A stretch of 32,000 bases of DNA from Promethearchaeota archaeon (GCA_030606485.1 JAUWGH010000010.1:30001-62000); one strand, 5' to 3'. Positions 7,730 through 28,585 are shown, numbered from the stretch's first letter. Notes: generated from the letters alone by a model not told the origin. Numbers and translations are program-made.

Positions 7730-7880
7730 ATTAAAGAAGTAAACTGAACATTTATTTTTTATGGGAGATTACAGTTTTGTGTCAGATAAAAAACTTTAAA
7801 TAAAACCTTAACCAACTGTATCATGTAATACAATAATGCTTCTAAAGGAAAAAATTCGCGTGCATTTGTAAGCGAATTTA

Positions 7881-8336
7881 ATGAATAAAGAAAGGAGCTT
7901 TAAAAGACTTCAAAAAGGTGTTATAATGCAGTTAACTTATAAAAATTCAAATCTAGCTGCATTAGTTATAGCTATTATAATTTGTATAACTTGGATTGTT
8001 TTGGACTATACACCTTTTGTTTGGGGAGTCTTAATTCTGAGTATAATACTTTTTATCGGGTGGTCATTTTTCGAGAACAAGCCAGAAAGACCTTCTAAAT
8101 TTGAAGTTATAGCTCCTTATGTTTCTGGAATAATCTTATTGATAATTTGTTTATTGTTTAACTCCTTGACATATCTTTATATCCCTCTTATATCATTATG
8201 TTGGGCAATATTGTACCATATCACTTTCAAAAAACAAGAGAAGGTAAAAGAAAATAAACCTAGCGAGATAAAACAAGCAGATCGTAAAACAATTACCCCA
8301 AACACTAAAGAAAAGGTGTTAAAAAAAAATATTTGA
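7881..8336 (+). CDS. Four-helix membrane protein with a charged C-terminal tail
   Basis: Four hydrophobic stretches. Convergent with the orphan toxin ORF, 20 bp between the stops. Confidence 0.75.
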   Translation: MNKERSFKRLQKGVIMQLTYKNSNLAALVIAIIICITWIVLDYTPFVWGVLILSIILFIGWSFFENKPERPSKFEVIAPYVSGIILLIICLLFNSLTYLYIPLISLCWAILYHITFKKQEKVKENKPSEIKQADRKTITPNTKEKVLKKNI

Positions 8337-8356
8337 TTTATTTTATTTATATTTGT

Positions 8357-8869
8357 TTAATAAATCTCTAAACACCAATCAATGCATTCTTCCAAAGTCA
8401 TGGAACCTAATCCCCCTTCACATATAACACCATATACGAATTCACACCCTAAAGCAAAAATGAAAGCCCACCCACCAGTCAAAGCGAGTATCAATATAAT
8501 CGTACCGCAAAAAAAACCAGCTATAAGTGCACATCCAAAGACTTGTATAAACCAACATACTGCTATACAATCAGTTTGTCCAAAATCCATTAATTTTGCT
8601 GAACTCTCGATAATCTGTAGGTCGTATTTTGGGAGTTGTTGTTTAACTAAAATGGAGAGAATCCTAATTTTATCCTCCATAATGAAGTAATTTTGAGCCA
8701 GCTGTGCGATACTTTTATCTTCAGAAATTTTATAAGATTTATCGTAGATTTTCCCAATCTTTCTCGCAACTTTACCCAAAATGTTATACATTTCCGATAA
8801 TTTAAAGATCGAATTAAACTCAATCCGTTCAAAAGTATTTATCTTCTTCTCTGTTGGAGTAAATATCAT
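8357..8869 (-). CDS. Orphan, 5'-truncated halocin-C8-like precursor (pro-domain remnant plus 76-aa, 8-Cys hydrophobic tip)
   Basis: About 52/118 aa identical by hand to the pro-domain of 9817..11205. Homology extends in frame upstream of the ATG to 8947. The tip sequence differs from the main gene. No signal peptide. Confidence 0.75.
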   Translation of the reverse strand: MIFTPTEKKINTFERIEFNSIFKLSEMYNILGKVARKIGKIYDKSYKISEDKSIAQLAQNYFIMEDKIRILSILVKQQLPKYDLQIIESSAKLMDFGQTDCIAVCWFIQVFGCALIAGFFCGTIILILALTGGWAFIFALGCEFVYGVICEGGLGSMTLEECIDWCLEIY

Positions 8870-8947
8870 TAATGTGGATGATTTATTATAGAATTCTGAA
8901 TTGAGAGGGTTAAGGATTGTTAAAAGAGTAAAATTATATTCATCATT

Positions 8948-9250
8948 TCAACATCTTGAGCACGGATTTAGCAGGCAAAAACAAGCGATTTTCAATGGAG
9001 TTGCGAAAGGCAATGTCAGTCATATAGTTGTGATCCGTGGAGAAGATTGTTTAAAACTAAAGCATTGTAACGCTGAAGAATTAAATACGGATATTGTGGA
9101 GGAATATTCTGAAGAGGTCGTTAAGAAATTCAGAACTAAATTAAAAGTAGATATTAAAGAAAGAACCAGAACTTGGCGCACGAGGAGCCAACAATATAAA
9201 GATATAAATTTGGCAGTAGATATATATTATCAATGGAATAATAAAAAAAA
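8948..9250 (+). other. Unrelated coding fragment that truncates the orphan gene, possibly a transposase remnant
   Basis: Open frame (part of ORF 8901..9326) with ...DINLAVDIYYQW, loosely like the first Asp strand of DDE transposases. It begins exactly where homology to 9817..11205 ends. Confidence 0.3.
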
Positions 9251-9291
9251 AGAGGTCGCAATTATGTCGGGTGAGATGAATTTGCAACCTC
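9243..9291 (-). terminator. Hairpin plus U9 tract at the end of the toxin/immunity pair
   Basis: GAGGTCGCAATT (9252-9263) pairs imperfectly with AATTTGCAACCTC (9279-9291). The A9 run at 9243-9251 gives a U-tract on the minus strand. Confidence 0.55.
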
Positions 9292-9816: not shown

Positions 9817-11205
9817 TTAGCAACAACCTAGCATCTGACAAGCAATATAAGTACTTCCAGTCATAAGAAAATATTCTAATCCAAGAATACAGAATGCACC
9901 TGCACCAGGCACAAAGATAATTAAAAGTACACATGCTATGAATCCACCTGCAGCAACAGCAAGTTCACACAAAACACAGTCCCAGAAAGGGTCACCGCCA
10001 AAGCAGCCACCACCGCCAAGGAGGCCACCGCCACCGCCACCATTGGGTGTGTATGCATCAATTATAATTACTGAATTTTGTTGAATTGGTAAATCATATT
10101 CAGAAAGACATTTTTTTACAAGATATGAAAGTTCCTCAGCTTCTTTGTTCATGACCTTATAGTTGTTGGAAAAACCTTTTAACGAATCATCTTCACTATA
10201 TTTATATACTTCTCCAAGTTCTTTAGCTACTTCTCCTATAATATGGTATTGTTGTGATAATTTAACAGGCGAATTGAACTTTACGATCTCCATCGATGTA
10301 ATAGACTTTTCGTCGGCAGGGATATATCTTAAAATCGTGGAAGAACCATTATAGATTTCTGAATTGAGGGAAGTAAGTCTCGTATAAAAAGTCAAATTAT
10401 ATTCTTCATGTTGAGCTAGATAGTTTAGTTCATAAAATTGCGTGGACGTGTCTCCTGTAATGATTTCACTTGAAATGAAAGAAGCAGTTCTTTTGATTTC
10501 ATTTGTGATCTCATTATAACTCCATAGTAAAGTATTGATAATAGTAAACTCATAGGTTATACCATCAAACTCGTATGTTAGGAGAATTACAATATGATTA
10601 TCGTCTTGCTCTAACACTGTGGACGTGATAGTTATGGATTCACTGTTATCTGGGCATTCCTGATTACTGGTGCAGCATGGACAACCTGTCAGATATAGAA
10701 GTAGAGGTTCTATTTGAAGTTTTGGTTTTTCTATTCCATCTACTGTAACATAGTGATAAGTTGTCCAGATCGGGTATTTAACATCTATCCATGCTAGAAT
10801 GCCGCCAAGCATATTGTTGATTTTCGTAAAGCCATAGTTAACTAGGATTTCTGATGCTAATTGACTCCTGTCTCCAGCCTTGCAGTATATTATAATCTCA
10901 TGATTTACGTGATCTTCAATTTCGCTAATTCTTTTTTCAAGTCCATCGTAGGGTATTAAAATGGCATCGTATAAATGACCCTTCTTATACTCATACGGGG
11001 TTCTAACATCCAAAATTATAAGGTTTGGATATTTATTTTCTTTTTTTATCATGTTATAGGCAGTATCCACAGTAATGTTTTGAAAGGTTTGTTCTTCAGC
11101 AGCAACCGTTATTATTAAACTGAAAGATGGTAGCAAAAAGGCAACTATAATGAGCAGAGCTATTGTTTTACGACTTGTATATTTTAAATTAGTTTTTAAT
11201 TTCAT
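9817..11205 (-). CDS. Secreted rhodanese-domain protein with a C-terminal halocin-C8-like Cys-rich tip
   Basis: Basic then hydrophobic signal peptide. Rhodanese motifs LDVRTPYEY..GH, active-site loop YCKAGDRS and GGILAW. Also a GCPCC linker, a Gly-rich linker, and the tip CVLC..AAGGFIACVLLIIFVPGAGAFC..IACQMLGCC. Confidence 0.85.
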   Translation of the reverse strand: MKLKTNLKYTSRKTIALLIIVAFLLPSFSLIITVAAEEQTFQNITVDTAYNMIKKENKYPNLIILDVRTPYEYKKGHLYDAILIPYDGLEKRISEIEDHVNHEIIIYCKAGDRSQLASEILVNYGFTKINNMLGGILAWIDVKYPIWTTYHYVTVDGIEKPKLQIEPLLLYLTGCPCCTSNQECPDNSESITITSTVLEQDDNHIVILLTYEFDGITYEFTIINTLLWSYNEITNEIKRTASFISSEIITGDTSTQFYELNYLAQHEEYNLTFYTRLTSLNSEIYNGSSTILRYIPADEKSITSMEIVKFNSPVKLSQQYHIIGEVAKELGEVYKYSEDDSLKGFSNNYKVMNKEAEELSYLVKKCLSEYDLPIQQNSVIIIDAYTPNGGGGGGLLGGGGCFGGDPFWDCVLCELAVAAGGFIACVLLIIFVPGAGAFCILGLEYFLMTGSTYIACQMLGCC

Positions 11206-12432: not shown

Positions 12433-13518
12433 ATGGTATCTAGAAGAAATTTATCTAAGAAAAAAATTTCGTCCCAAAACATTTCTGTATCTCCTTACCT
12501 TAGAGATTGGGTCGAAAGGTATGTCAAGATGGAACAGAAAAAGAACCCTAACGATAAAAGAGTTAAGAGTATATCCTCCTTTTACAATTATGTAATGGAA
12601 TCTGTTCTAAAAATTTTCGAAAAGGGAAAAACCCTAGATGATTTAGAAATATTTGTGGATAAAAAAGTTCAGAATTTCTATGATAAAATCACATTTAGAG
12701 CGCTAATACCCTACTATGAGCAGATAATCAAAATAAACAAATATCAACCAATAGAATTTGATTGTTTAATAGATCTATTCTTAAAATATAGAAGTTTTCT
12801 TATCGGTAAAAATGAGCCTAGTGATGAGATCGCACTGAATATGATAGAAAGATTTAAAAATTTTATGCTCGCTAATAAATTGACCAAGGATTTCAAGATC
12901 GATATTATAAATAATTCTTATATCATAGAATATTCTGGATATTACCCCAATATACATTATGATCATTCGAAATGGATAGCTGGATTAGCTGGGCTTCTAG
13001 GTCTAAAGATAAAGAATTTGATCATATCTAATAACTTTTTAAGATTATCTCTTGAAAAGACTTCTCTGTTTAAAATTCGAGATTTGGAGATAGAAAGGAG
13101 AAGAGAGCTATTTTATTATAATGTTAATAAATTTACGAACTGGTACAGAGTTATAGATGATCAAACTCAACATCTATGGCTAAAAATGTCAAATAATAAA
13201 GATATAATCATTAATTTCAAGGATGTTACAAGTGGTCTTGAGTTTATAAATTCAATAATAAGAGACTTGGTGGAATATGCCAAAACAGAGAACTTAGTTT
13301 TAGATATTTTAAAATTATTTAGATATTTCCGCTGGATTGACATTGATAATTTTGAAAAACCATCATTTCACTTTTGTGTTGAGGATAAGCACCATCACAT
13401 TATAAGGGAGATGGTCTTTAATATATTACAAAAAATGAAAGTAATAATAAAAGAAGAAAATGAAATATTTTATTTAAACTTGAAACAAATCTCTTGCATT
13501 GACTATACAGTTCTCTAA
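12433..13518 (+). CDS. Putative regulator: N-terminal ribbon-helix-helix-like segment plus uncharacterised sensor-like domains
   Basis: NISVSPYLRDWVERYV...SISSFYNYVME has a strand-helix-helix pattern. The domain assignment is inference. Confidence 0.55.
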   Translation: MVSRRNLSKKKISSQNISVSPYLRDWVERYVKMEQKKNPNDKRVKSISSFYNYVMESVLKIFEKGKTLDDLEIFVDKKVQNFYDKITFRALIPYYEQIIKINKYQPIEFDCLIDLFLKYRSFLIGKNEPSDEIALNMIERFKNFMLANKLTKDFKIDIINNSYIIEYSGYYPNIHYDHSKWIAGLAGLLGLKIKNLIISNNFLRLSLEKTSLFKIRDLEIERRRELFYYNVNKFTNWYRVIDDQTQHLWLKMSNNKDIIINFKDVTSGLEFINSIIRDLVEYAKTENLVLDILKLFRYFRWIDIDNFEKPSFHFCVEDKHHHIIREMVFNILQKMKVIIKEENEIFYLNLKQISCIDYTVL

Positions 13519-15027
13519 TCTTATCTCATATTTTTTATTCATTTCACTTTCCATTCTTGGTTTAAACAACTCAAAGTTCATTTCGCTTATTTTTATCAAC
13601 GAACGAATTAAATTTTTGGCATATGGAGAGGAGGTAGATACGGGCGATTTAAGAAGTGCTTCCACAAATCTAGAATATACATCTAGAATCTTCTTTTCAC
13701 TTTCGTGATATGCTTTAAATGCGTATTTTAATGCGGAAAATCCTTTCCCTAGATTTTTATGCTCGAATGGAAAGAAACCTTCATGATATACGAATTCAGA
13801 TGGAAGATCATCTCCAAAAATTCTTCCCTCACTTTTAAGTTGTTCGTAAAGTGGCGTCATTGGAAGCGGTTTTAGAGTAGATATGAAATACCAGAGGGAG
13901 TCATATTCTAAATTTCTTTGTATATCAATTTCAATTGTCTTTTTATTATGTATCGGCAACCCAAGAATAAAGTTGTGATTCGTTATAATACCCATATCAT
14001 TAAGCGACTTAATAAAATTGTTATTTAAACCCTTATTCTTTTCGTATTTTTGAAGAGTGGATTCTATTCCATAGTTGACTAACATGAATTTGATAGCAGA
14101 TTCTTCTTGAATTTTTTTAAGGTTGAATGTTTTCAAATGAGAAAGCGAAATTAAACAAATGATATACATATAATTATTATATCTGCTCTTATTTTCAATA
14201 AAATAATCAAATACCTTTTTCCACACACTCTCTGGAAAGCAAGCATTTGGTTCACATAAATACAATATCATATCACCATCATTTGAGGACATTATTTTTT
14301 CTAGAAGTTCTATTATCTTCTTATGATTACTAAACGGATTGTACTGATAAATTGCGGAAGTAATACAGAAATCACATCTAAATGGGCAACCAATCTGGGA
14401 GACCATATAGGCGGTTTTCATATTTGTTAGAAAACTAAATTGATCAGATATAATTGTCGGCATTTTAAAACCTTCCCTGGAAATGGTAGGGAGGTTGAAT
14501 TTTTTACGAAGCCAGTTAATTCCATTCCCAATACATATGTTTTGCGGTTTAATCAATTTTTGTATATAAGGAAATAATACTCCGATACCGCCCGTGTATA
14601 TTTTTTTGTCTGGATAGTCTCTTTGAATCATATTTATCACATCTACGACTTTATTCAACCCATTTGCATAAGTACTTAATCCAATATGTGTAATCTCATC
14701 ATCTTTATCTAGAATATTCTGAGCATTTTGCACGTTGCACACATCATCAATCACAACAGAGTCAATCTCAGGCAGGTTTTCTGCTAGAAAGTGGCCCTCA
14801 ATATTAGGTGAGTTTAATATATTTGCATAAATAGCAGCATTAAAAGGATTTAATTTGTATCCATATTCGTCGAATGCTCTCTGTATTTCCTCCTTATCAA
14901 CATATTGGGGGTAATCATCATATTTTGGATCATTCAAAACTTCCAGAGCAAGATGCTCCGTCGGTTTTAATTCCTTTGAAAGAGTTTTTAAGAATAAAAT
15001 TTTTGGTTTTCTCAATAATAGCACCAT
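13474..15027 (-). CDS. Cobalamin-binding radical SAM protein
   Basis: CxxxCxxC motif (GCPFRCDFC) preceded by a Rossmann-like B12 domain (HIGLST...KIYTGG), followed by GIES and FILGLP TIM-barrel motifs. Confidence 0.9.
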   Translation of the reverse strand: MVLLLRKPKILFLKTLSKELKPTEHLALEVLNDPKYDDYPQYVDKEEIQRAFDEYGYKLNPFNAAIYANILNSPNIEGHFLAENLPEIDSVVIDDVCNVQNAQNILDKDDEITHIGLSTYANGLNKVVDVINMIQRDYPDKKIYTGGIGVLFPYIQKLIKPQNICIGNGINWLRKKFNLPTISREGFKMPTIISDQFSFLTNMKTAYMVSQIGCPFRCDFCITSAIYQYNPFSNHKKIIELLEKIMSSNDGDMILYLCEPNACFPESVWKKVFDYFIENKSRYNNYMYIICLISLSHLKTFNLKKIQEESAIKFMLVNYGIESTLQKYEKNKGLNNNFIKSLNDMGIITNHNFILGLPIHNKKTIEIDIQRNLEYDSLWYFISTLKPLPMTPLYEQLKSEGRIFGDDLPSEFVYHEGFFPFEHKNLGKGFSALKYAFKAYHESEKKILDVYSRFVEALLKSPVSTSSPYAKNLIRSLIKISEMNFELFKPRMESEMNKKYEIRLENCIVNARDLFQV

Positions 15028-15031
15028 AATA

Positions 15032-16039
15032 TTATTTATTTAATTTGTGAATTTTTGTTATTCCCATTAGTATTGCATCCTTTCCATTCAAATAAAATGG
15101 CAGGAATCCATAATATCTGATATTTAGGTTTAGAAGTAAGCTCTGTAATTGTCTATCATTAATATCAATTACAAAGGATAACGAATTAATTTCATCGGTG
15201 TAATAGAAATCGTTTACAATTTTTTTAATTATCTGATATTTTAAATCTAACGGGATATCATTTATGAATCGAAAATCATACCAAGATTTATGGTATTCAT
15301 TCTCGTATAATTGTGCGCATATACCTCCTTTGTTCATTACAAAATTTTCAGTTCGGATTAGAATCTCATATGGAAATCGATCTTCTATCTTTTCTATTTT
15401 AATTTTATACATTTTTTGAGTAGGAGTCGTTGGTAAAAATATTGGCTGAGCAACGATAAGTCGCTTTAAACCATTTTCTTTGATTGTTTTATAGAGATAT
15501 TTGCAAAACGCTATGTATGGAGTTATAAGTTTCCATTTAAAATCATATGATACCCTCCCAAAAATAATAAACGACTTATTTTTATCATGCATAGGAGTGG
15601 TCCCCAGTTTTACAAAATTATGATTTGTAAGTATTTTTAATATTGGAGTATTAGTGCTACTTACAAATGCATATATACATTTAAGATCAGATTCATTCAA
15701 ATTATTTAATACTTGTTCCATATGAAAACTTATGAGTGTCATAACACCTATGCCTTTGTATTTTTGATTCCCCATTGTCAGCTTTAAGAATGCTACGCCA
15801 TGCTTTATTACACTTAGCATCTGTGCGATTAATTTCCCCTTGTAAAAACCCCCCTTCCAAAAAACGTTATTTTTATCAATGTTATCCTTTATATAACTAC
15901 TAATAATTGCTCTTTCGTAGAACTCCTTCTCTGGATACTCATTCCCATATATTTCCTTAATTAAATTAATAATTTCATCTATATCTTCATAGATGATATC
16001 CCTTACTTCGACTTCTCTCAGAATTTTATATTTTTTCAT
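15032..16039 (-). CDS. GNAT-family acetyltransferase-like protein (probably two GNAT-like domains)
   Basis: VRDIIYEDIDEIINLIKEIYG start, YKGIGVMT motif-A-like segment, NHNFVKLG motif-B-like segment; 4 bp upstream of the radical SAM gene. Confidence 0.7.
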   Translation of the reverse strand: MKKYKILREVEVRDIIYEDIDEIINLIKEIYGNEYPEKEFYERAIISSYIKDNIDKNNVFWKGGFYKGKLIAQMLSVIKHGVAFLKLTMGNQKYKGIGVMTLISFHMEQVLNNLNESDLKCIYAFVSSTNTPILKILTNHNFVKLGTTPMHDKNKSFIIFGRVSYDFKWKLITPYIAFCKYLYKTIKENGLKRLIVAQPIFLPTTPTQKMYKIKIEKIEDRFPYEILIRTENFVMNKGGICAQLYENEYHKSWYDFRFINDIPLDLKYQIIKKIVNDFYYTDEINSLSFVIDINDRQLQSLLLNLNIRYYGFLPFYLNGKDAILMGITKIHKLNK

Positions 16040-16420
16040 ATTTGTTAAAAAATTTCTTTTATAAAATAATTATAAAATCTTACATTTTTATAAAAAAAGA
16101 CCCATGAGAATTACTAAAGTTCAATTTTTACTTATAAGCGCTTCTCTCTCCAAAAAGTTTTAAAATTTCTTTTTTCGTCGATTTTTTGTCGGTCTTATAT
16201 TTAAATAAAAATATTATGATAATAGGGTTGGTCTAATTTCTTAGAATAGCTCAAATGTTAGTTTTAAAAATTATTAAGAAAAAATAAGAATTAATTTATC
16301 TGAATATTATTGAATTCCTATAAAAAATTCTTTCCAATTCAACAACATTCTGAATTTTGAATAGTTTATTGACCAGCTTTGAAATTTTTTTCAATCATAA
16401 TAAATGTTAATTAAAATTGA

Positions 16421-16682
16421 TAATTTTGAGACAAAAAATGGTTGCCATATTATAAATCGAAAAATGAAAGTTATATTACCATTTCATCTAAAAATTTTAT
16501 TATAAAATAATAATAAAATAAGGTTAAAAATTTTAAGGTATTTTTAAAATCTTTTAAATTTGTGGGATTTAATCTTGTATAGGGTTTAACATAGTTTCAT
16601 TGTGATTAAAAATTGTCATATGTATTTAAAAAGGAAAATCTACTGAATGTTATTATCGAAAATTATAAGAAAAATAAATTAA
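16421..16682 (+). repeat. Repeat family 2, copy D (upstream of 16700..17431)
   Basis: Roughly 85% identical by eye to 20376-20642. Confidence 0.9.
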
Positions 16683-16699
16683 TGTAAAAATATTTTGGG

Positions 16700-17431
16700 G
16701 TGAAATTCATGAGTGAAAGAATTTATGGGAAAATGCCATTAGATTATAGTGAAATTAAGGAATTGAAAACAATTGCCAAAGTAGAATTAGGATGGGATAA
16801 GGTAATTGGAGAACTGTGGGATTCCTCAAATGCACTTCTTAGAACTGAAATTGCCAATAGAGGAAAAAATAGAGCAAAAATTTTGAAAATGAAGGAAAGG
16901 GAGAAAACTTACAAAAGACGGGAGAAATCATACCATATACTGAGTGTGGGACATCTAAAGAAAACGTTAGAATTGATAGATGAATCAGTAAAAACTCTAG
17001 GAGATGAAAAAATTAACGAGCTAGAAAAAGTAAAAGAAAATGTAGCTCCACTACGTAATGAAGCGTTGGATTTTATTAAAGAGTCTTTGTTGGAAGAAGA
17101 TATTGAACCTGAAATACCAGGTGAAATTGTAGATATTTATGAAGAATTAGTAAAAGTTGTAGAAGCTGATGGTTTTAAGGGATTAGTTAATAATATCAAG
17201 AAAAACCTGAATGAATTAATTGAAATTCGTTCTGATGAATCAAAAAATAGGGGACGTGACGAAAAACATTCTCCACTTCTGTGGTGGAAATGGCTTATTG
17301 TCGCAGGAATTGTTGGGGCGGGAGTGGCTGTACTTATACCGTGCTTGATATGGCATAAATGTTCATGGTTAATAGCAATTGCCAGTAGGGTTGCTTATTG
17401 GATTATTGAAGTTATTAAAACGGGTTGTTAA
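16700..17431 (+). CDS. Helical charged protein with a hydrophobic Trp/Cys-rich C-terminal hairpin (likely start ATG 16709)
   Basis: E/K-rich helical first ~185 aa, then HSPLLWWKWLIVAGIVGAGVAVLIPCLIWHKCSWLIAIASRVAYWIIEVIKTGC. GGGGTGA Shine-Dalgarno before 16709. Confidence 0.8.
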   Translation: MKFMSERIYGKMPLDYSEIKELKTIAKVELGWDKVIGELWDSSNALLRTEIANRGKNRAKILKMKEREKTYKRREKSYHILSVGHLKKTLELIDESVKTLGDEKINELEKVKENVAPLRNEALDFIKESLLEEDIEPEIPGEIVDIYEELVKVVEADGFKGLVNNIKKNLNELIEIRSDESKNRGRDEKHSPLLWWKWLIVAGIVGAGVAVLIPCLIWHKCSWLIAIASRVAYWIIEVIKTGC

Positions 17432-21844: not shown

Positions 21845-22026
21845 AAAATATTTATATATTTAATTTTTCCATTTAATTTATTTTTTGAACGTTGTTAAAT
21901 CTATAAATTTATGAATATATGCTTTTTAAGGCTCATAATATTGAGGTGCAAGGCTTTCATAGTAATTTTATAATATTTTTTTTTTGTCATATATATTTAA
22001 ATAAAAAAATAAATAAAAATCAAAAT

Positions 22027-22857
22027 ATGAAATCAAATAAACTTCAAAGAATAGGGAAATATAAATCTGAGAGTGGTGGCGTCATACGCTTTATTATTGA
22101 CATTGACCACGCTAAAGAATACGAATTGGATGAAGCCTTGAGTTTTTTTATTTCAGCTACCAATGATTTTGCAAGAGGTAAGGATCATTGGTTTAATGCA
22201 GATAAAGCGAAAATGCTCAAAAAGCCTGAAAAAGAAACAAAATTTAAAAAGCTATTAATGGAAGACAACGCAAAAGGCTTGGAGAAAGTTAAGAAAGCTA
22301 AAATGCTGATAAAAAAGCCACTTGACAATTTTAAAAATATTGAAAAAAAAATGAAAGTATCACATGAAGAATTTAAAAAAAACATGAACAAACGTGAAGC
22401 AGAGCTTAAAGAAAATTTAATGGTTGCAAATTTATCTCTCGATGAAATAAAAATTATCTTAGAAGAATTTACTAAGAGTAGAAAAATATTTGAAATTGAA
22501 GGAAGACAAGGACTTATTAAACACCTGAGCAATCAATTCGAAGAATTGGAGGAACTTTGCTCTGACCCTAGTAAAGGTTGGAAACGTGCTAGTGTTACAT
22601 GTGTTATTTGTATAATCATCCTGTTAATTTTAGCCATCGGTTTTATCGTGACAACAATTATTATTATTTCGTATATAGTCAACTGGAATACGAAGGAAAT
22701 TCATGATCTGAAAAATGAATCCCCAGCATGTAAAATCGATGAAATGACACCTGAGGGTAAAGAATATTTTAAAACTTTCGAAGAAGCAGACCATTACTTT
22801 AAAAATAAAGGATTTAATGGATGTGCGTGGTGTATGCCCCAATATCATACTGATTAA
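22027..22857 (+). CDS. Coiled-coil protein with one TM helix and a small C-terminal His/Cys domain (track start 21919, likely ATG 22027)
   Basis: K/E-rich helical body, hydrophobic CVICIIILLILAIGFIVTTIIII, then NWNTKEIHDL...ACKIDE...GFNGCAWCMP. Confidence 0.8.
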   Translation: MKSNKLQRIGKYKSESGGVIRFIIDIDHAKEYELDEALSFFISATNDFARGKDHWFNADKAKMLKKPEKETKFKKLLMEDNAKGLEKVKKAKMLIKKPLDNFKNIEKKMKVSHEEFKKNMNKREAELKENLMVANLSLDEIKIILEEFTKSRKIFEIEGRQGLIKHLSNQFEELEELCSDPSKGWKRASVTCVICIIILLILAIGFIVTTIIIISYIVNWNTKEIHDLKNESPACKIDEMTPEGKEYFKTFEEADHYFKNKGFNGCAWCMPQYHTD

Positions 22858-22987
22858 ATTCAACATCAAATTATTTAATGCTGAGTTGAGAAAATAAATT
22901 ATAAAATATATAGTACTATCAAAAAAAAATCGATTTTAATTTATTAAAATATTAAGGAGGGTAAAAAAACATAAAGAGGGATAAAAA

Positions 22988-25597
22988 ATGGATGTAAAAA
23001 AGAAAGGATTTATAATTTACGGAAAAGTCTTAGGAAAAGTAAGCAAAAAAGGGATTACTAGCTTGACAGTTGAAGCATTGGATAAAGATCTATTATTTGA
23101 TGATCGTTTGGGCACTGCAATTACTAATAAAGATGGTAATTTTGAAATTCTGTATGATAAAGAAGATTTTCAAGAACTTTTTCTTGATTTAAAACCAGAT
23201 ATATATTTAAGGGTGAAAAATCCAAAGGGAGAAATCATATATACCACAGAAGACAAGATCAAATATGGGGTTATAGGGGTAGAAGAGTTTAATATAGTTA
23301 TTTCAGAAAAATTGATCGAAAAAATAGAAGTTGAAAGCGAAAGGCTACAATTTAAGAAATTAACGGATATCAATCCTAATTACTTTGGAAATATAATCGA
23401 TAAGAAACTCGCAATTCAATATCTCCCTGTATATGAAATGACAAATAATGTTAAATACGAAGAGTTAGTATGCGTGGGTTCTTATCCTGAAGATAATATA
23501 CTAATGGCTATTATTGAAGTAAAATTGCCTTATGGTTATAAGGGATCACTATGTAAAGCAGGTAGCAAGGAATATGTAGGTTTTTATATTGATTACAATG
23601 ATGGCGTCGGTTTTGTAAGTGTGGGCGCAATAACAGAGGTAAATGTTCATGATATTTCTTTTGTTGATGGAGGACATCTTTTTTATGCTGTACGCAAATC
23701 TTTCATTCCCAAGGATTATTTTAAATGCAATAAATCACAAATAGTTAAAGTGAGGGCGATTTTATCTTGGGAACAATTACCAACGGGTCCTAATTTCGAA
23801 CCAGTATGGGGAAATGTTGTTGATACATGGATTCAGATTAAACCAATATATCCAATTTTTTATTCTATCCCCCAATTTAAACTTTTACCAGAAGTAGAAA
23901 TAAAACCTATTGGATTAATTCCTTCTGTTGAAAAGTTTGTAATTGCAGGGGATAAAGAAGAAATTATAGAATTAATAAATAAATCCATCGAAGCGGAAAA
24001 GAGAATAAAAGAAGAAGGAAAAGTTGAAGTAGAGCGGCTTGAATTTAAGAAGATGATTATGAAAAATCCAAATTACTTCGGCTCGATTACTGAATCTACA
24101 GATAAAAATAAGATTTTCAGAGTGATACGCCATCTTCCCCCAGATACTATCAAAATTTTACTCCCTAAACTTACAATTGATCCTAACATGCTTGTACCAG
24201 TAAAATTTTATATTCTGAAAACAATGTATGAAGAATTAAAATGTATCGGACTCTATCCTAATGGTGATCTTTTGGAAGCAGTTATAGAGATTAAATTGCC
24301 GTACGGGTTTAATGGTGATTTATGTACTCTAGGTAGTAAAGAGTATGTTGCTTTTTATATCGATTGGGGTTCAGGTTATAAGCATGTAGCTACATCGACG
24401 GTGGGAGTTCACGACATCCCCGTTGTAAATGATAAACATCTTTTCTATGCCGTAAAGGCAAAAATTCCTAATATAAAATCAAAATTGAAAGATTGTCCTA
24501 TTGAAAATATTGTAAAAGTCAAGGCAATATTATCTTGGAATGAAGACCCAACCCCCTATGGGCATATTTATAAACCAACATGGGGAAATGTATTAATAAG
24601 GAATATCCAGATAAGGCCAAAAGATGGAGTAAGCGTTAAATGTGATATTGAAATTGTCAATGAAGTGCATATTGATGAAATAAGTCAAAGTGGTATTAAT
24701 GAAGGGCTTGCCATTAAGATTGATGCGTCAAACAATGCAGTTCCATTGATATATGATAGACCTTTTGGAGGTATCATTGCATGTTGGGGGAATATAAATG
24801 TTTGGGGTGCAGCATATTACAGATTTAGATATAGCAATGATGAGGGTATTACTTGGAAAAATATTACGGATGAGAGGAAAGCACGTAATACATTTCCTTT
24901 GTTACCTGTTATCACAAGAACTCCAGATAGTAATGGATGGTTTAGTAAGAGTGAATATGATACTGATATAGATAACTATAGTCTTGCTCCCTTGGTACAT
25001 TGGAGGAGTTATGGAAAGGATAATAAATATTTGCTAAAGCTTGAATTAGCAGATGCAGAGAAAAATCCACTTCCTGGACAAACAACTGATGTCTCACTTA
25101 TACTGGATAATAGAGAACCTGAACTTTTTACGTTTGGTGGAACTCCACCCCCAACACTGCCTACTAAAGGTGTTACTGTCAAAGATAGCGAAGGAAATTA
25201 TAAAAAATGTGATGCATTTATCGGAAATAAGGACTGGGAAGTATCTTTAATCTTTATCTATGGTAATTTCAGAGATGACTATTTTAAAAAATTTCGATTA
25301 AAAATATTTGGAGGAAATATTTCAGAGTCTGGTGAACAAATAGGTGAAGAAGTTCGATATGATGATCCAATTCCAGGTGTTGATGAACAAGGCATTATTG
25401 GTGCCATCGATGGAGGACTTGGTCAAGAGATTGGAAATTTAAATTTATGTCCTGATAAAATAAAGTGCGCTTACGGTATAGAACTCACGATTTGGGATAG
25501 ATCGATTGTGGGCTCTGTTAGAGGATATGAATTTAATACATATAATCACGGAAAAGATGCTTTTGTAACCTTTGATTGGGACCCCAAAGGTTGTTAA
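22988..25597 (+). CDS. Large beta-rich protein: transthyretin-like domain, two internal ~170-aa repeats, DRPFGG C-terminal region
   Basis: LTVEALDKDLLFDDRLGTAITNKDGNFEI domain. The motif ERL.FKK....NPNYFG...YEEL.C.G.YP...KLPYG..G.LC..GSKEYV.FYID...HD...HLFYAV...VKV.AILSW...WGNV...IQI.P occurs twice. No signal peptide. Confidence 0.85.
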   Translation: MDVKKKGFIIYGKVLGKVSKKGITSLTVEALDKDLLFDDRLGTAITNKDGNFEILYDKEDFQELFLDLKPDIYLRVKNPKGEIIYTTEDKIKYGVIGVEEFNIVISEKLIEKIEVESERLQFKKLTDINPNYFGNIIDKKLAIQYLPVYEMTNNVKYEELVCVGSYPEDNILMAIIEVKLPYGYKGSLCKAGSKEYVGFYIDYNDGVGFVSVGAITEVNVHDISFVDGGHLFYAVRKSFIPKDYFKCNKSQIVKVRAILSWEQLPTGPNFEPVWGNVVDTWIQIKPIYPIFYSIPQFKLLPEVEIKPIGLIPSVEKFVIAGDKEEIIELINKSIEAEKRIKEEGKVEVERLEFKKMIMKNPNYFGSITESTDKNKIFRVIRHLPPDTIKILLPKLTIDPNMLVPVKFYILKTMYEELKCIGLYPNGDLLEAVIEIKLPYGFNGDLCTLGSKEYVAFYIDWGSGYKHVATSTVGVHDIPVVNDKHLFYAVKAKIPNIKSKLKDCPIENIVKVKAILSWNEDPTPYGHIYKPTWGNVLIRNIQIRPKDGVSVKCDIEIVNEVHIDEISQSGINEGLAIKIDASNNAVPLIYDRPFGGIIACWGNINVWGAAYYRFRYSNDEGITWKNITDERKARNTFPLLPVITRTPDSNGWFSKSEYDTDIDNYSLAPLVHWRSYGKDNKYLLKLELADAEKNPLPGQTTDVSLILDNREPELFTFGGTPPPTLPTKGVTVKDSEGNYKKCDAFIGNKDWEVSLIFIYGNFRDDYFKKFRLKIFGGNISESGEQIGEEVRYDDPIPGVDEQGIIGAIDGGLGQEIGNLNLCPDKIKCAYGIELTIWDRSIVGSVRGYEFNTYNHGKDAFVTFDWDPKGC

Positions 25598-27904: not shown

Positions 27905-28585
27905 TTATAATAAAATTTTTAATACTTTATCAACACTCGATTTATTTTGCTTTAATCTCCCTGAAAAATAAGTAATTAGGTGATATACACATTCCGAAAG
28001 GGTATTGTAATTAAAAGTAAGGCAGGCAAGCTCAACTTCATAACTTGCGATATGCTTCTGCTTAGCTTTATCAAGAGCGTATTTTGCTAGCTTTATCGTA
28101 TTTTTATGTAATGGTCGTAGCTTTTTAATTTGAGCAATTTTCTTTTTCTCCTGTTTAAATTCCTGATTTGTAAGGTATACAACGTCAACATAACATTTGG
28201 GATTTAAAAAATCTATATGGACAGCCTTGTCCCCCATATGCACTTTAGAATTCTTCTTAAATCCTTTTTTAGCCCTCTCTAAAAGATCCTTTCGAATAGT
28301 ATTCTTATTTTGATCTTTGCCAGTACAAAAAATTATGTCTAAATCGCTCTTCCTAATATCTGTTCGCTTCCCTCGTGATCCACCTTCCTTTATCGCTGCG
28401 ATTTTAAAACCTGTAGTCTTTCGTAGGAAGTTCATAACTCGGTTTAATTTCGAATCATATAATGTCTGGGTTTGAGGATCGGTATTAATTTTCTTTAAAA
28501 ATTCTTTAAGCTTTCTATTCTCTAATTTCTTAAGACTACTCGTTTTTTCCACCTTTGTATATTTATTGAAATAGTATTTTAACAA
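27905..28585 (-). CDS. Pol-beta-superfamily nucleotidyltransferase, OAS/CD-NTase (SMODS)-like
   Basis: GGSRGKRTDIRKSDLDII fits GS-x2-K-x-T-x4-SDxD. Third Asp in YVDVV. C-terminal IKLAKY...IASYEVEL resembles the OAS/CD-NTase lobe. Start is uncertain (TTG). Confidence 0.75.
   Translation of the reverse strand: MLKYYFNKYTKVEKTSSLKKLENRKLKEFLKKINTDPQTQTLYDSKLNRVMNFLRKTTGFKIAAIKEGGSRGKRTDIRKSDLDIIFCTGKDQNKNTIRKDLLERAKKGFKKNSKVHMGDKAVHIDFLNPKCYVDVVYLTNQEFKQEKKKIAQIKKLRPLHKNTIKLAKYALDKAKQKHIASYEVELACLTFNYNTLSECVYHLITYFSGRLKQNKSSVDKVLKILL

Follow-up and report, generated by a model that had tools for sequence, protein, structure and literature searches.

What is the short reading frame that lies downstream of a rhodanese-domain gene and its neighbour in a 32,000-nucleotide stretch of Promethearchaeota DNA (the whole stretch analysed, hereafter the window), and why does it resemble the end of that gene's product only as far as a single Asp? 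The frame, P0004, occupies positions 8360-8947 on the minus strand. It comprises 196 codons, open between a TGA at 8948-8950 and a TAA at 8357-8359, and starts directly 3' of the TGA; its first ATG, at 8869, gives a 170-aa ORF. A sequence-only reading had taken it for an orphan toxin module, that is, a ~44%-identical second copy of the last ~120 aa of the main gene's pro-domain, lacking a signal peptide and a rhodanese domain, whose similarity to the main gene stops abruptly at a shared Asp and gives way to a different 8-Cys tip. Each of these features was confirmed. P0004 residues 1-121 (8585-8947, minus strand) correspond to residues 266-383 of the main protein, P0001, with 53 identities over 118 positions (44.9%) in a global alignment. 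The whole proteins match at E 3e-30 (BLASTP), and an HMM of 62 homologous pro-domains matches P0004 at E 1.8e-39. Mapped on the predicted structure, the fragment begins with three beta strands, continues through the helical hairpin and ends with the last strand and its junction Asp. At the DNA level the two pro-parts are 59.5% identical and the longest exact run is 12 nt. Neither a signal peptide nor a rhodanese domain is present in P0004. Both pro-parts finish in Asp (..IIID in the orphan, at 8585-8587, and ..KLMD in P0001), after which follow 75 residues in the orphan and 79 in P0001, with 8 Cys in each. The similarity ends at this Asp, because the local score of the orphan tip against the P0001 tip was equalled by 172 of 2000 composition-matched shuffles. 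The orphan tip (class B; 8360-8584, minus strand) is hydrophobic, and its Cys framework is C-x3-C-x7-C-x7-C-x20-C-x7-C-x11-C-x3-C.

The main gene lies at 9817-11205 on the minus strand and encodes 462 aa, as read from the ORF and its translation. P0001 consists of a signal peptide (residues ~1-36), a rhodanese domain (48-140; Pfam E 5e-15; 10786-11064 in the window), a pro-domain (150-383) and a Gly-rich linker with a class A 8-Cys tip (384-462). Its N-terminus (MKLKTNLKYTSRKTIALL..) has no RR motif and, read from the sequence, looks like a Sec-type signal; a twin-arginine (Tat) signal was not seen in that reading. Among 44 homologues, at least 90% retain the catalytic Cys108 of the rhodanese, and Arg113 of the active site is invariant. 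The domain is followed by a Cys-rich GCPCC..C linker (10665-10690); one of its Cys is conserved in at least 90% of members and a second in most. The exported rhodanese would presumably help with Cys chemistry and, together with the Cys-rich linker, could possibly have a role in maturing the Cys-rich tip. In the AlphaFold model, a confident beta-rich domain (150-310) is followed by two long helices (316-335 and 340-366) and by a last strand (373-383) that closes with Asp383. After this Asp come the disordered Gly-rich linker and a low-confidence, helical, hydrophobic tip with its 8 Cys. Asp383 (10057-10059, minus strand) is invariant in alignment A4 and near-invariant in A2, and the tips diverge right after it. 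The LSQQY site (residues 315-320; 10246-10263, minus strand) marks the start of the helical hairpin and recurs as a module boundary, as described below. No relative of the pro-domain fold was identified by Foldseek against the PDB (E>=0.13 at best), in the ESM Atlas (TM<=0.42, partial porin-like sheets) or with VIA-align wide (Z<=6.0). The ESM Atlas feature search reached a top score of 0.80, and the full-model Atlas search returned rhodanese clusters only.

The orphan is separated from P0002, the gene next to P0001, by a 314-bp spacer (8948-9261) that has no homology to the main gene. The spacer is unique in the genome, blastn and tblastx searches against the whole genome returning only the spacer itself. 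It holds a 141-aa plus-strand ORF without a Pfam match, and no transposase signature was found in it. A duplicate broken by an insertion sequence, named beforehand as the outcome that would speak against an orphan module, was not seen, and this origin for the orphan was ruled out. The 3.75-Mb genome has two copies of the family only, P0001 and the orphan. In all four metagenome runs examined, contigs break no more than ~50 bp from the 5' edge of the orphan (window 8913-8983), which hints at population variation or at graph branching at this boundary. DNA of the window is present in cold-seep and marine-sediment metagenomes from 11 studies; no RNA run was listed as containing the stretch, and three RNA runs from related samples have almost none of its words.

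Both tips in the window are encoded beside a small membrane protein. P0002 (9262-9798, minus strand), a 178-aa four-helix membrane protein encoded immediately after P0001, is the candidate immunity partner for class A. It has 51 database homologues, and a homologue lies directly 3' of the precursor in L006, L007, L008, L009, L012, L018, L024 and L028. Class A tips are paired with the P0002 family in seven loci, and the family also follows a 10-Cys tip class (L024 and L028). Since the P0002 family accompanies two tip classes, the pairing of tip and partner is not strictly 1:1. P0003 (7881-8336, plus strand; 151 aa, 3-4 helices) is convergent with the orphan and is the candidate immunity partner for class B. 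This convergent arrangement with a class B module was found in four contexts (the window, the sister species G001, and contigs L049 and L051), with the P0003 gene intact in all four. The class C partner belongs to a third membrane-protein family, seen in both full-length and orphan contexts, and three pairs of tip class and partner family recur (A with P0002, B with P0003, C with the third family). Other small membrane proteins occupy the partner position in bathyarchaeal, Sulfolobales and other loci. Prediction of a complex between P0003 and the class B tip gave a score of 0.25 (mark 0.32), which speaks neither for nor against the pairing, and pN/pS among P0003 alleles was about 0.3-2. P0003 could be an ordinary membrane protein that merely adjoins the orphan; as a candidate immunity protein, it may derive from an ordinary membrane protein or mimic the target of the toxin.

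Relatives of both partners also occur away from tips. A paralogue ~47% identical to P0003 belongs to the core genome, at C10:706720-707133 of the window's own genome (G000) and at syntenic sites in G001, G002 and G003. In all four species it is flanked by two housekeeping-type genes and has no tip nearby. A stand-alone P0002 paralogue, P0119 (59% identity; G000 C3:24495-24941), lies about 5 kb before the start of the window. No precursor or tip fragment was found beside P0119, which looks like an orphan immunity gene.

The precursor was compared with about 100 relatives. P0001 has 74 database homologues, mostly of 440-490 aa and with a rhodanese domain, from hosts that, where named, are Bathyarchaeia, Sulfolobales, Desulfurococcaceae, Njordarchaeota and Lokiarchaeota. 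Genome loci of the family were found in MAGs of Promethearchaeota, Bathyarchaeota and Sulfolobales. Where the sources name family members, they call them 'rhodanese-like domain-containing protein' only, and no description of the family was found in the full-text literature searched. Among 62 homologues, mean column identity is 58% in the pro-domain vs 12% in the tips. Full members share a ..sSAvLmD ending, with a near-invariant junction Asp, and diverge completely after it, which bears out the earlier expectation of a conserved N-terminal part with hypervariable tips. The tips are 60-110 aa long with 8-22 Cys, mostly in even numbers, and 57 of them cluster into 18 classes. In the class B alignment (A5), the Asp and the 8 Cys alone are invariant. 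The orphan's tip class was also found, as had been predicted, on full-length genes elsewhere. The intact 460-aa protein P0011 carries a tip 58% identical to that of the orphan, and P0006-P0008 carry more distant ones. L052 is a near-full-length class B gene with two frameshifts and a missing N-terminus, whose tip is about 83% identical to the orphan's. In the full-length class B loci L019, L020 and L021, a contig end or a transposase lies just downstream of the gene. Together, these comparisons show an archaeal family (Asgard, Bathyarchaeia, Thermoprotei) of putative toxins that is built like the bacterial polymorphic toxin systems.

Some members depart from the common layout. P0030 has a Hint domain (PF05203) and P0034 a 300-aa extension beyond the tip, and in P0032 and P0040 an insert of about 230 aa separates the junction Asp from the tip. 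The 37-kb Promethearchaeota contig JAEOTA010000042.1, of which L023 and L026 are the two ends, begins and finishes inside a family gene, both times at the same profile position (198/235). This suggests that the assembly breaks where two copies cease being identical.

If tips are modules, they should be found on more than one pro-domain background. Placed on a tree built from the N-terminal portion of the pro-domain, the tip classes needed 29 changes vs a minimum of 17 if tips and tree were congruent. The co-variation of tips with pro-domain phylogeny that had been named in advance as contrary evidence was thus not seen. P0018 and P0057 are sisters with 100% support and carry different tips, and P0001, with its class A tip, is nested within the class B clade. 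P0001 is itself a mosaic: over residues 1-300 it shares 64-92% identity with proteins bearing other tips, and over residues 201-300 just 30-54% with class A tip bearers. Tree and alignments show that tip classes move between pro-domain lineages. The possibility that the orphan is the displaced old C-terminus of the main gene was ruled out at 45% protein and 59.5% DNA identity to P0001 266-383. Because the orphan is this distant while the N-terminal 300 residues of P0001 are so much closer to other lineages, it derives from a different paralogue.

A second boundary became apparent at the LSQQY site. Metagenome contigs X2, X10 and X12, from runs of three studies, track the main gene to position 10256 (codon 317, the S of LSQQY) and then continue into a different family sequence, a third sign that tips are swapped. 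The block shared between G000 and G001 stops at 8791, in the orphan codon homologous to the LSQQY site. In L053 (2481-2483) and L055 (52-54), an in-frame TAA replaces the second Gln codon of the motif (LSQ*Y and LSR*Y), and in both of these divergent alleles a Met codon lies 10 codons 3' of the TAA; the two stops could be C>T nonsense mutations that happen to coincide, or the gene may have been split repeatedly at this boundary. The DNA motif at the site is conserved across phyla. The recurrence of the LSQQY site in X2/X10/X12, in the G000/G001 block and in L053/L055 therefore points to a module boundary where the hairpin begins, in addition to the one at the junction Asp. Compared in this way, the sequences show two kinds of exchangeable unit: a tip by itself where the break falls at the Asp, and the helical hairpin together with the tip where it falls at LSQQY. 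A recombinant joint between 10363 and 8923 was too weak to call, coming from one run with a 36-nt side. In-situ recombination of the orphan with the resident main gene looks unlikely and would not be easy, because the DNA is just 59.5% identical with no exact run longer than 12 nt.

The orphan is not alone, and part of it has moved. A 1,050-bp cassette (7743-8791, delimited by blastn) contains P0003 and the orphan tip together with the final 68 codons of the pro-fragment. In G001, which belongs to the same genus as the window's genome and G003, this cassette is 96.8% identical and sits at a different chromosomal site, within a 1.75-kb insertion. The matching site in G000 (C1:11684/11685) is empty, and the flanks of the G001 insertion are 90-93% identical to G000. 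The G001 module (L011) is an orthologous class B module, cut at the LSQQY-equivalent site and convergent with the P0003 orthologue; no full-length family gene was found in G001. On the JGI contig L049, a longer class B module with a 276-codon frame is convergent with a P0003-like gene, with no main gene within 6 kb, and L051 is syntenic with the window. G003 (L013) has a class C orphan convergent with a 133-aa membrane protein. G019 carries the class C tip on a longer gene, in which the pro-domain is complete and the rhodanese domain is reduced to its end; a homologue of the same 133-aa protein follows. In L007 and L018, the precursor and partner are followed by a start-less second class A tip fragment and then by a fragment of a second partner gene. 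In all, at least four genomes or contigs besides that of the window carry truncated modules. Class B modules can be ranked by how much of their 5' part remains, from the near-full-length gene with two frameshifts (L052) to frames of 276, 196 and 150 codons. The sequence-only reading had expected further orphan modules and arrays of them: the modules exist (G001, G003, L049 and the tip-only cases L007 and L018), and no arrays were seen, the orphans being single and scattered. Because they are single and scattered and their 5' ends differ, the orphans look eroded rather than stored in arrays, and we regard them as probable 5'-eroded relics. In the Desulfurococcaceae MAG TW002 (L031:7380-9761), a full-length precursor is directly followed by a second copy without signal peptide or rhodanese domain, which retains most of the pro-domain, bears a tip of another class and is in turn followed by its own small membrane protein.

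A comparison of five class B orphan alleles covered 130 shared codons, 55 of the pro-fragment and 75 of the tip. The pro-fragment is near-invariant (pN <=0.03, pS 0). The tip has pN 0.05-0.19 and pS 0.01-0.09, with pN/pS of 2-5 in every pair, figures that come from few substitutions among related alleles and with a pS difference between tip and pro-fragment that is not significant. The window and P0084 differ by 37 changes in the tip and by 3 in the pro-fragment next to it. All eight Cys are unchanged in the five tip alleles, and no stop or frameshift was found; in P0136, two framework Cys are lost. Since the changes cluster in the tip with a nonsynonymous excess and all eight Cys are kept, uniform neutral decay is disfavoured. 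Such a pattern is that of diversifying selection on a Cys-framework peptide and not of a dead fragment in uniform decay, although the tip divergence may predate the truncations.

The sequence-only reading had also called the system halocin-like and its layout that of a polymorphic toxin. The layout held, given the tip classes scattered over the tree, the other orphans and the same tip on full-length genes. The likeness to halocins held for the architecture and failed for the family models. The halocin C8 precursor (ProC8 of Natrinema, HalI + HalC8) is secreted, and its active C-terminal peptide of ~76 aa is Cys-rich and hydrophobic (bioRxiv 10.64898/2026.07.27.741052). The family described here fits this architecture, with a Cys-rich hydrophobic C-terminal tip that would be cleaved from a secreted precursor. 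Against the TIGR04449 model (halocin_C8_dom), the orphan tip scored 15.2 bits (E 0.033; cut-off 24 bits). Six of the 57 tips matched at E<=1 with 15-22 bits, all under the cut-off. The best score was 22.1 bits (P0011 tip), and the P0046 tip scored 18.0 over profile positions 4-64 of 69. Halocin_C8_dom was nevertheless the sole family matched by several tip classes, and no toxin family was matched above its cut-off by P0001, P0004 or the tips. PF22862 (Hac8_like_N, HalI) was not matched at E<=1 by P0001 or P0004, nor genome-wide, in a search whose control, the Haloferax volcanii genome, was detected. A class B tip profile run against 1.84 billion representative proteins returned 6 matches, all from the family itself, and no canonical halocin. 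The family also differs from halocin C8 in having a Sec-type signal, not Tat, a rhodanese domain and a pro-domain unmatched to HalI. Immunity would apparently reside in a separate membrane protein, whereas in halocin C8 it resides in the cleaved N-terminal part, and the family occurs in anaerobic archaea of sediments instead of haloarchaea. TIGR04449 was also the model behind a recent census of halocin C8 homologues, which mentioned neither rhodanese nor Asgard C8 carriers (bioRxiv 10.64898/2026.07.27.741052).

The closest organisational parallel is with the CdiA-CT/CdiI, Rhs and MafB systems (Zhang et al. 2012, PMC3482391). Shared with these are a conserved N-terminus, hypervariable tips and a sharp conserved junction; tips shuffled across lineages; and 5'-truncated modules of tip and candidate immunity gene that retain a conserved piece, with stand-alone paralogues of such partner genes. 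The adjacent partner genes here, candidate counterparts of the immunity genes of those systems, may likewise be tip-specific. In contrast to the enzymatic domains of bacterial polymorphic toxins, the tips here would be small Cys-framework membrane peptides, and export is by Sec only, without T5SS, T6SS, T7SS, Rhs or filamentous repeats. There are two boundaries (LSQQY and Asp) instead of a single VENN or PxxxxDPxGL motif, the orphans occur singly at scattered chromosomal sites and not in arrays behind the main gene, and some partners are convergent. Conotoxins and defensins are disulfide-rich hypervariable peptides that are cut from conserved precursors and belong to eukaryotic multigene families. 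They have in common with the present family a conserved pro-region, an invariant Cys framework and fast, mostly nonsynonymous change between the Cys. Unlike it, they have no immunity genes or cassette exchange, and the inter-Cys segments here are hydrophobic helices.

The reading that we prefer, with a probability of about 0.6, is that the orphan is a 5'-truncated module from a family of polymorphic, secreted peptide toxins and has been retained along with a candidate immunity gene of its own. A full-length member would be exported by its Sec signal peptide as a precursor bearing an extracytoplasmic rhodanese and a folded pro-domain of beta sheet and helical hairpin that ends in the near-invariant Asp. 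The hydrophobic tip of 60-110 residues that follows, with its even-numbered Cys framework, would be released at or near the Asp and, like halocin C8, would act on competing cells at their membrane or envelope. The producer would be protected by the small multi-pass membrane protein encoded beside the tip. The orphan (8360-8947) would then be the eroded remnant of a second, more divergent precursor gene with a class B tip, whose 5' part is missing from the signal peptide through the rhodanese domain to halfway along the pro-domain, with the tip frame and P0003 left intact. Its retention would be most simply explained by selection for P0003 immunity against the class B toxins of neighbours, and its intact, diversifying tip could serve as raw material, re-armable by recombination with a compatible full-length gene. 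Expression of the orphan and its re-arming in situ are not supported, because it has no signal peptide, its DNA is 59.5% identical to that of the main gene and no start-codon position is common to the alleles. More broadly, and somewhat short of even odds, Asgard archaea, Bathyarchaeia and Thermoprotei of anoxic sediments may share a Sec-exported polymorphic peptide-toxin system, with a rhodanese-led carrier, interchangeable tips, cognate membrane proteins, two fixed boundaries and mobile cassettes that act as a reservoir of specificity.

The same family could also leave behind a dead, decaying pseudogene fragment that is unexpressed, persists through linkage to P0003 or through youth, and has no reservoir role. 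Consistent with this are the 5'-erosion series of class B (frameshifted L052, then 276, 196 and 150 codons), the loss of two framework Cys in P0136, a pro-fragment that is part of a fold only and has no signal peptide, the low DNA identity to the resident main gene (59.5%) and the tip-only fragments without a start codon in L007 and L018. A fragment of this kind would not be expected to collect its substitutions in the tip (37 vs 3 between the window and P0084), to show a nonsynonymous excess while keeping eight Cys in five alleles, or to have five of five tip frames free of stops and frameshifts. We consider this explanation of the orphan unlikely, while giving it some weight. At the other extreme, the frame from the ATG at 8869 (170 aa) might be a functional leaderless gene, for example an intracellular or membrane-inserted regulator or an antitoxin-like decoy acting with P0003. 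Every allele does have an ORF of 147-261 aa with a start codon, the frames are intact and a closely placed, convergent P0003 recurs in four contexts. Yet the start codons differ in position and type (ATG, GTG, TTG), the N-terminal limits vary by more than 100 codons between alleles and the retained pro-fragment is unable to make a complete fold, which makes a leaderless gene highly improbable.

A further explanation does away with the toxin. The C-terminus could be a polymorphic membrane anchor or recognition helix of a surface rhodanese protein and the orphan a broken paralogue, the tip pairing with the adjacent membrane protein in kin or self-recognition, like IdsD/IdsE of Proteus, or in a surface sulfur-handling complex. 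The tips are indeed predicted as 3-4 hydrophobic helices and the partners are integral membrane proteins. The conservation of Cys108 (at least 90%) and Arg113 (invariant) suggests an enzymatic role at the surface, P0030 and P0034 have further domains beyond the tip, and toxin-family matches all fall below the cut-offs. However, an anchor leaves unexplained the 18 unrelated tip classes, the strict even Cys frameworks and the disordered Gly/Pro linker after the Asp, as well as tip swapping, stand-alone partner genes and cassettes of tip and partner without the enzyme domain; halocin C8 is, moreover, the sole recurrent family signal. We consider a non-toxin role quite improbable, and the reading of the orphan as a truncated module of a peptide-toxin family remains the one that we favour.

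Very little is known about competition among uncultured archaea, Asgard archaea especially, and nearly all known archaeocins are from haloarchaea or Sulfolobales. Recent censuses have used a halocin C8 model that misses the family, with 0 matches at E<=0.01 to TIGR04449 in 301 genomes of the phylum. If the proposed system is real, it would be a widespread and testable archaeal toxin-immunity system and a natural library of dozens of membrane peptides on disulfide frameworks. It would also offer a defined pro-domain with a predicted fold that nothing in the PDB or ESM Atlas clearly matches, and an exported rhodanese that in sulfidic habitats may be linked to Cys chemistry. Cassette logic of the kind seen in the polymorphic toxins of bacteria would then also have arisen around small archaeal peptides. 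The large ORFs that neighbour the locus, at 12433-17431 and 21919-25597, are mostly without a Pfam family, and because of this the region looks like a variable island of dark-matter genes. Further along the window, a 226-aa minus-strand ORF (27905-28585) scored 25.5 bits as a SMODS nucleotidyltransferase, against a cut-off of 26.5.
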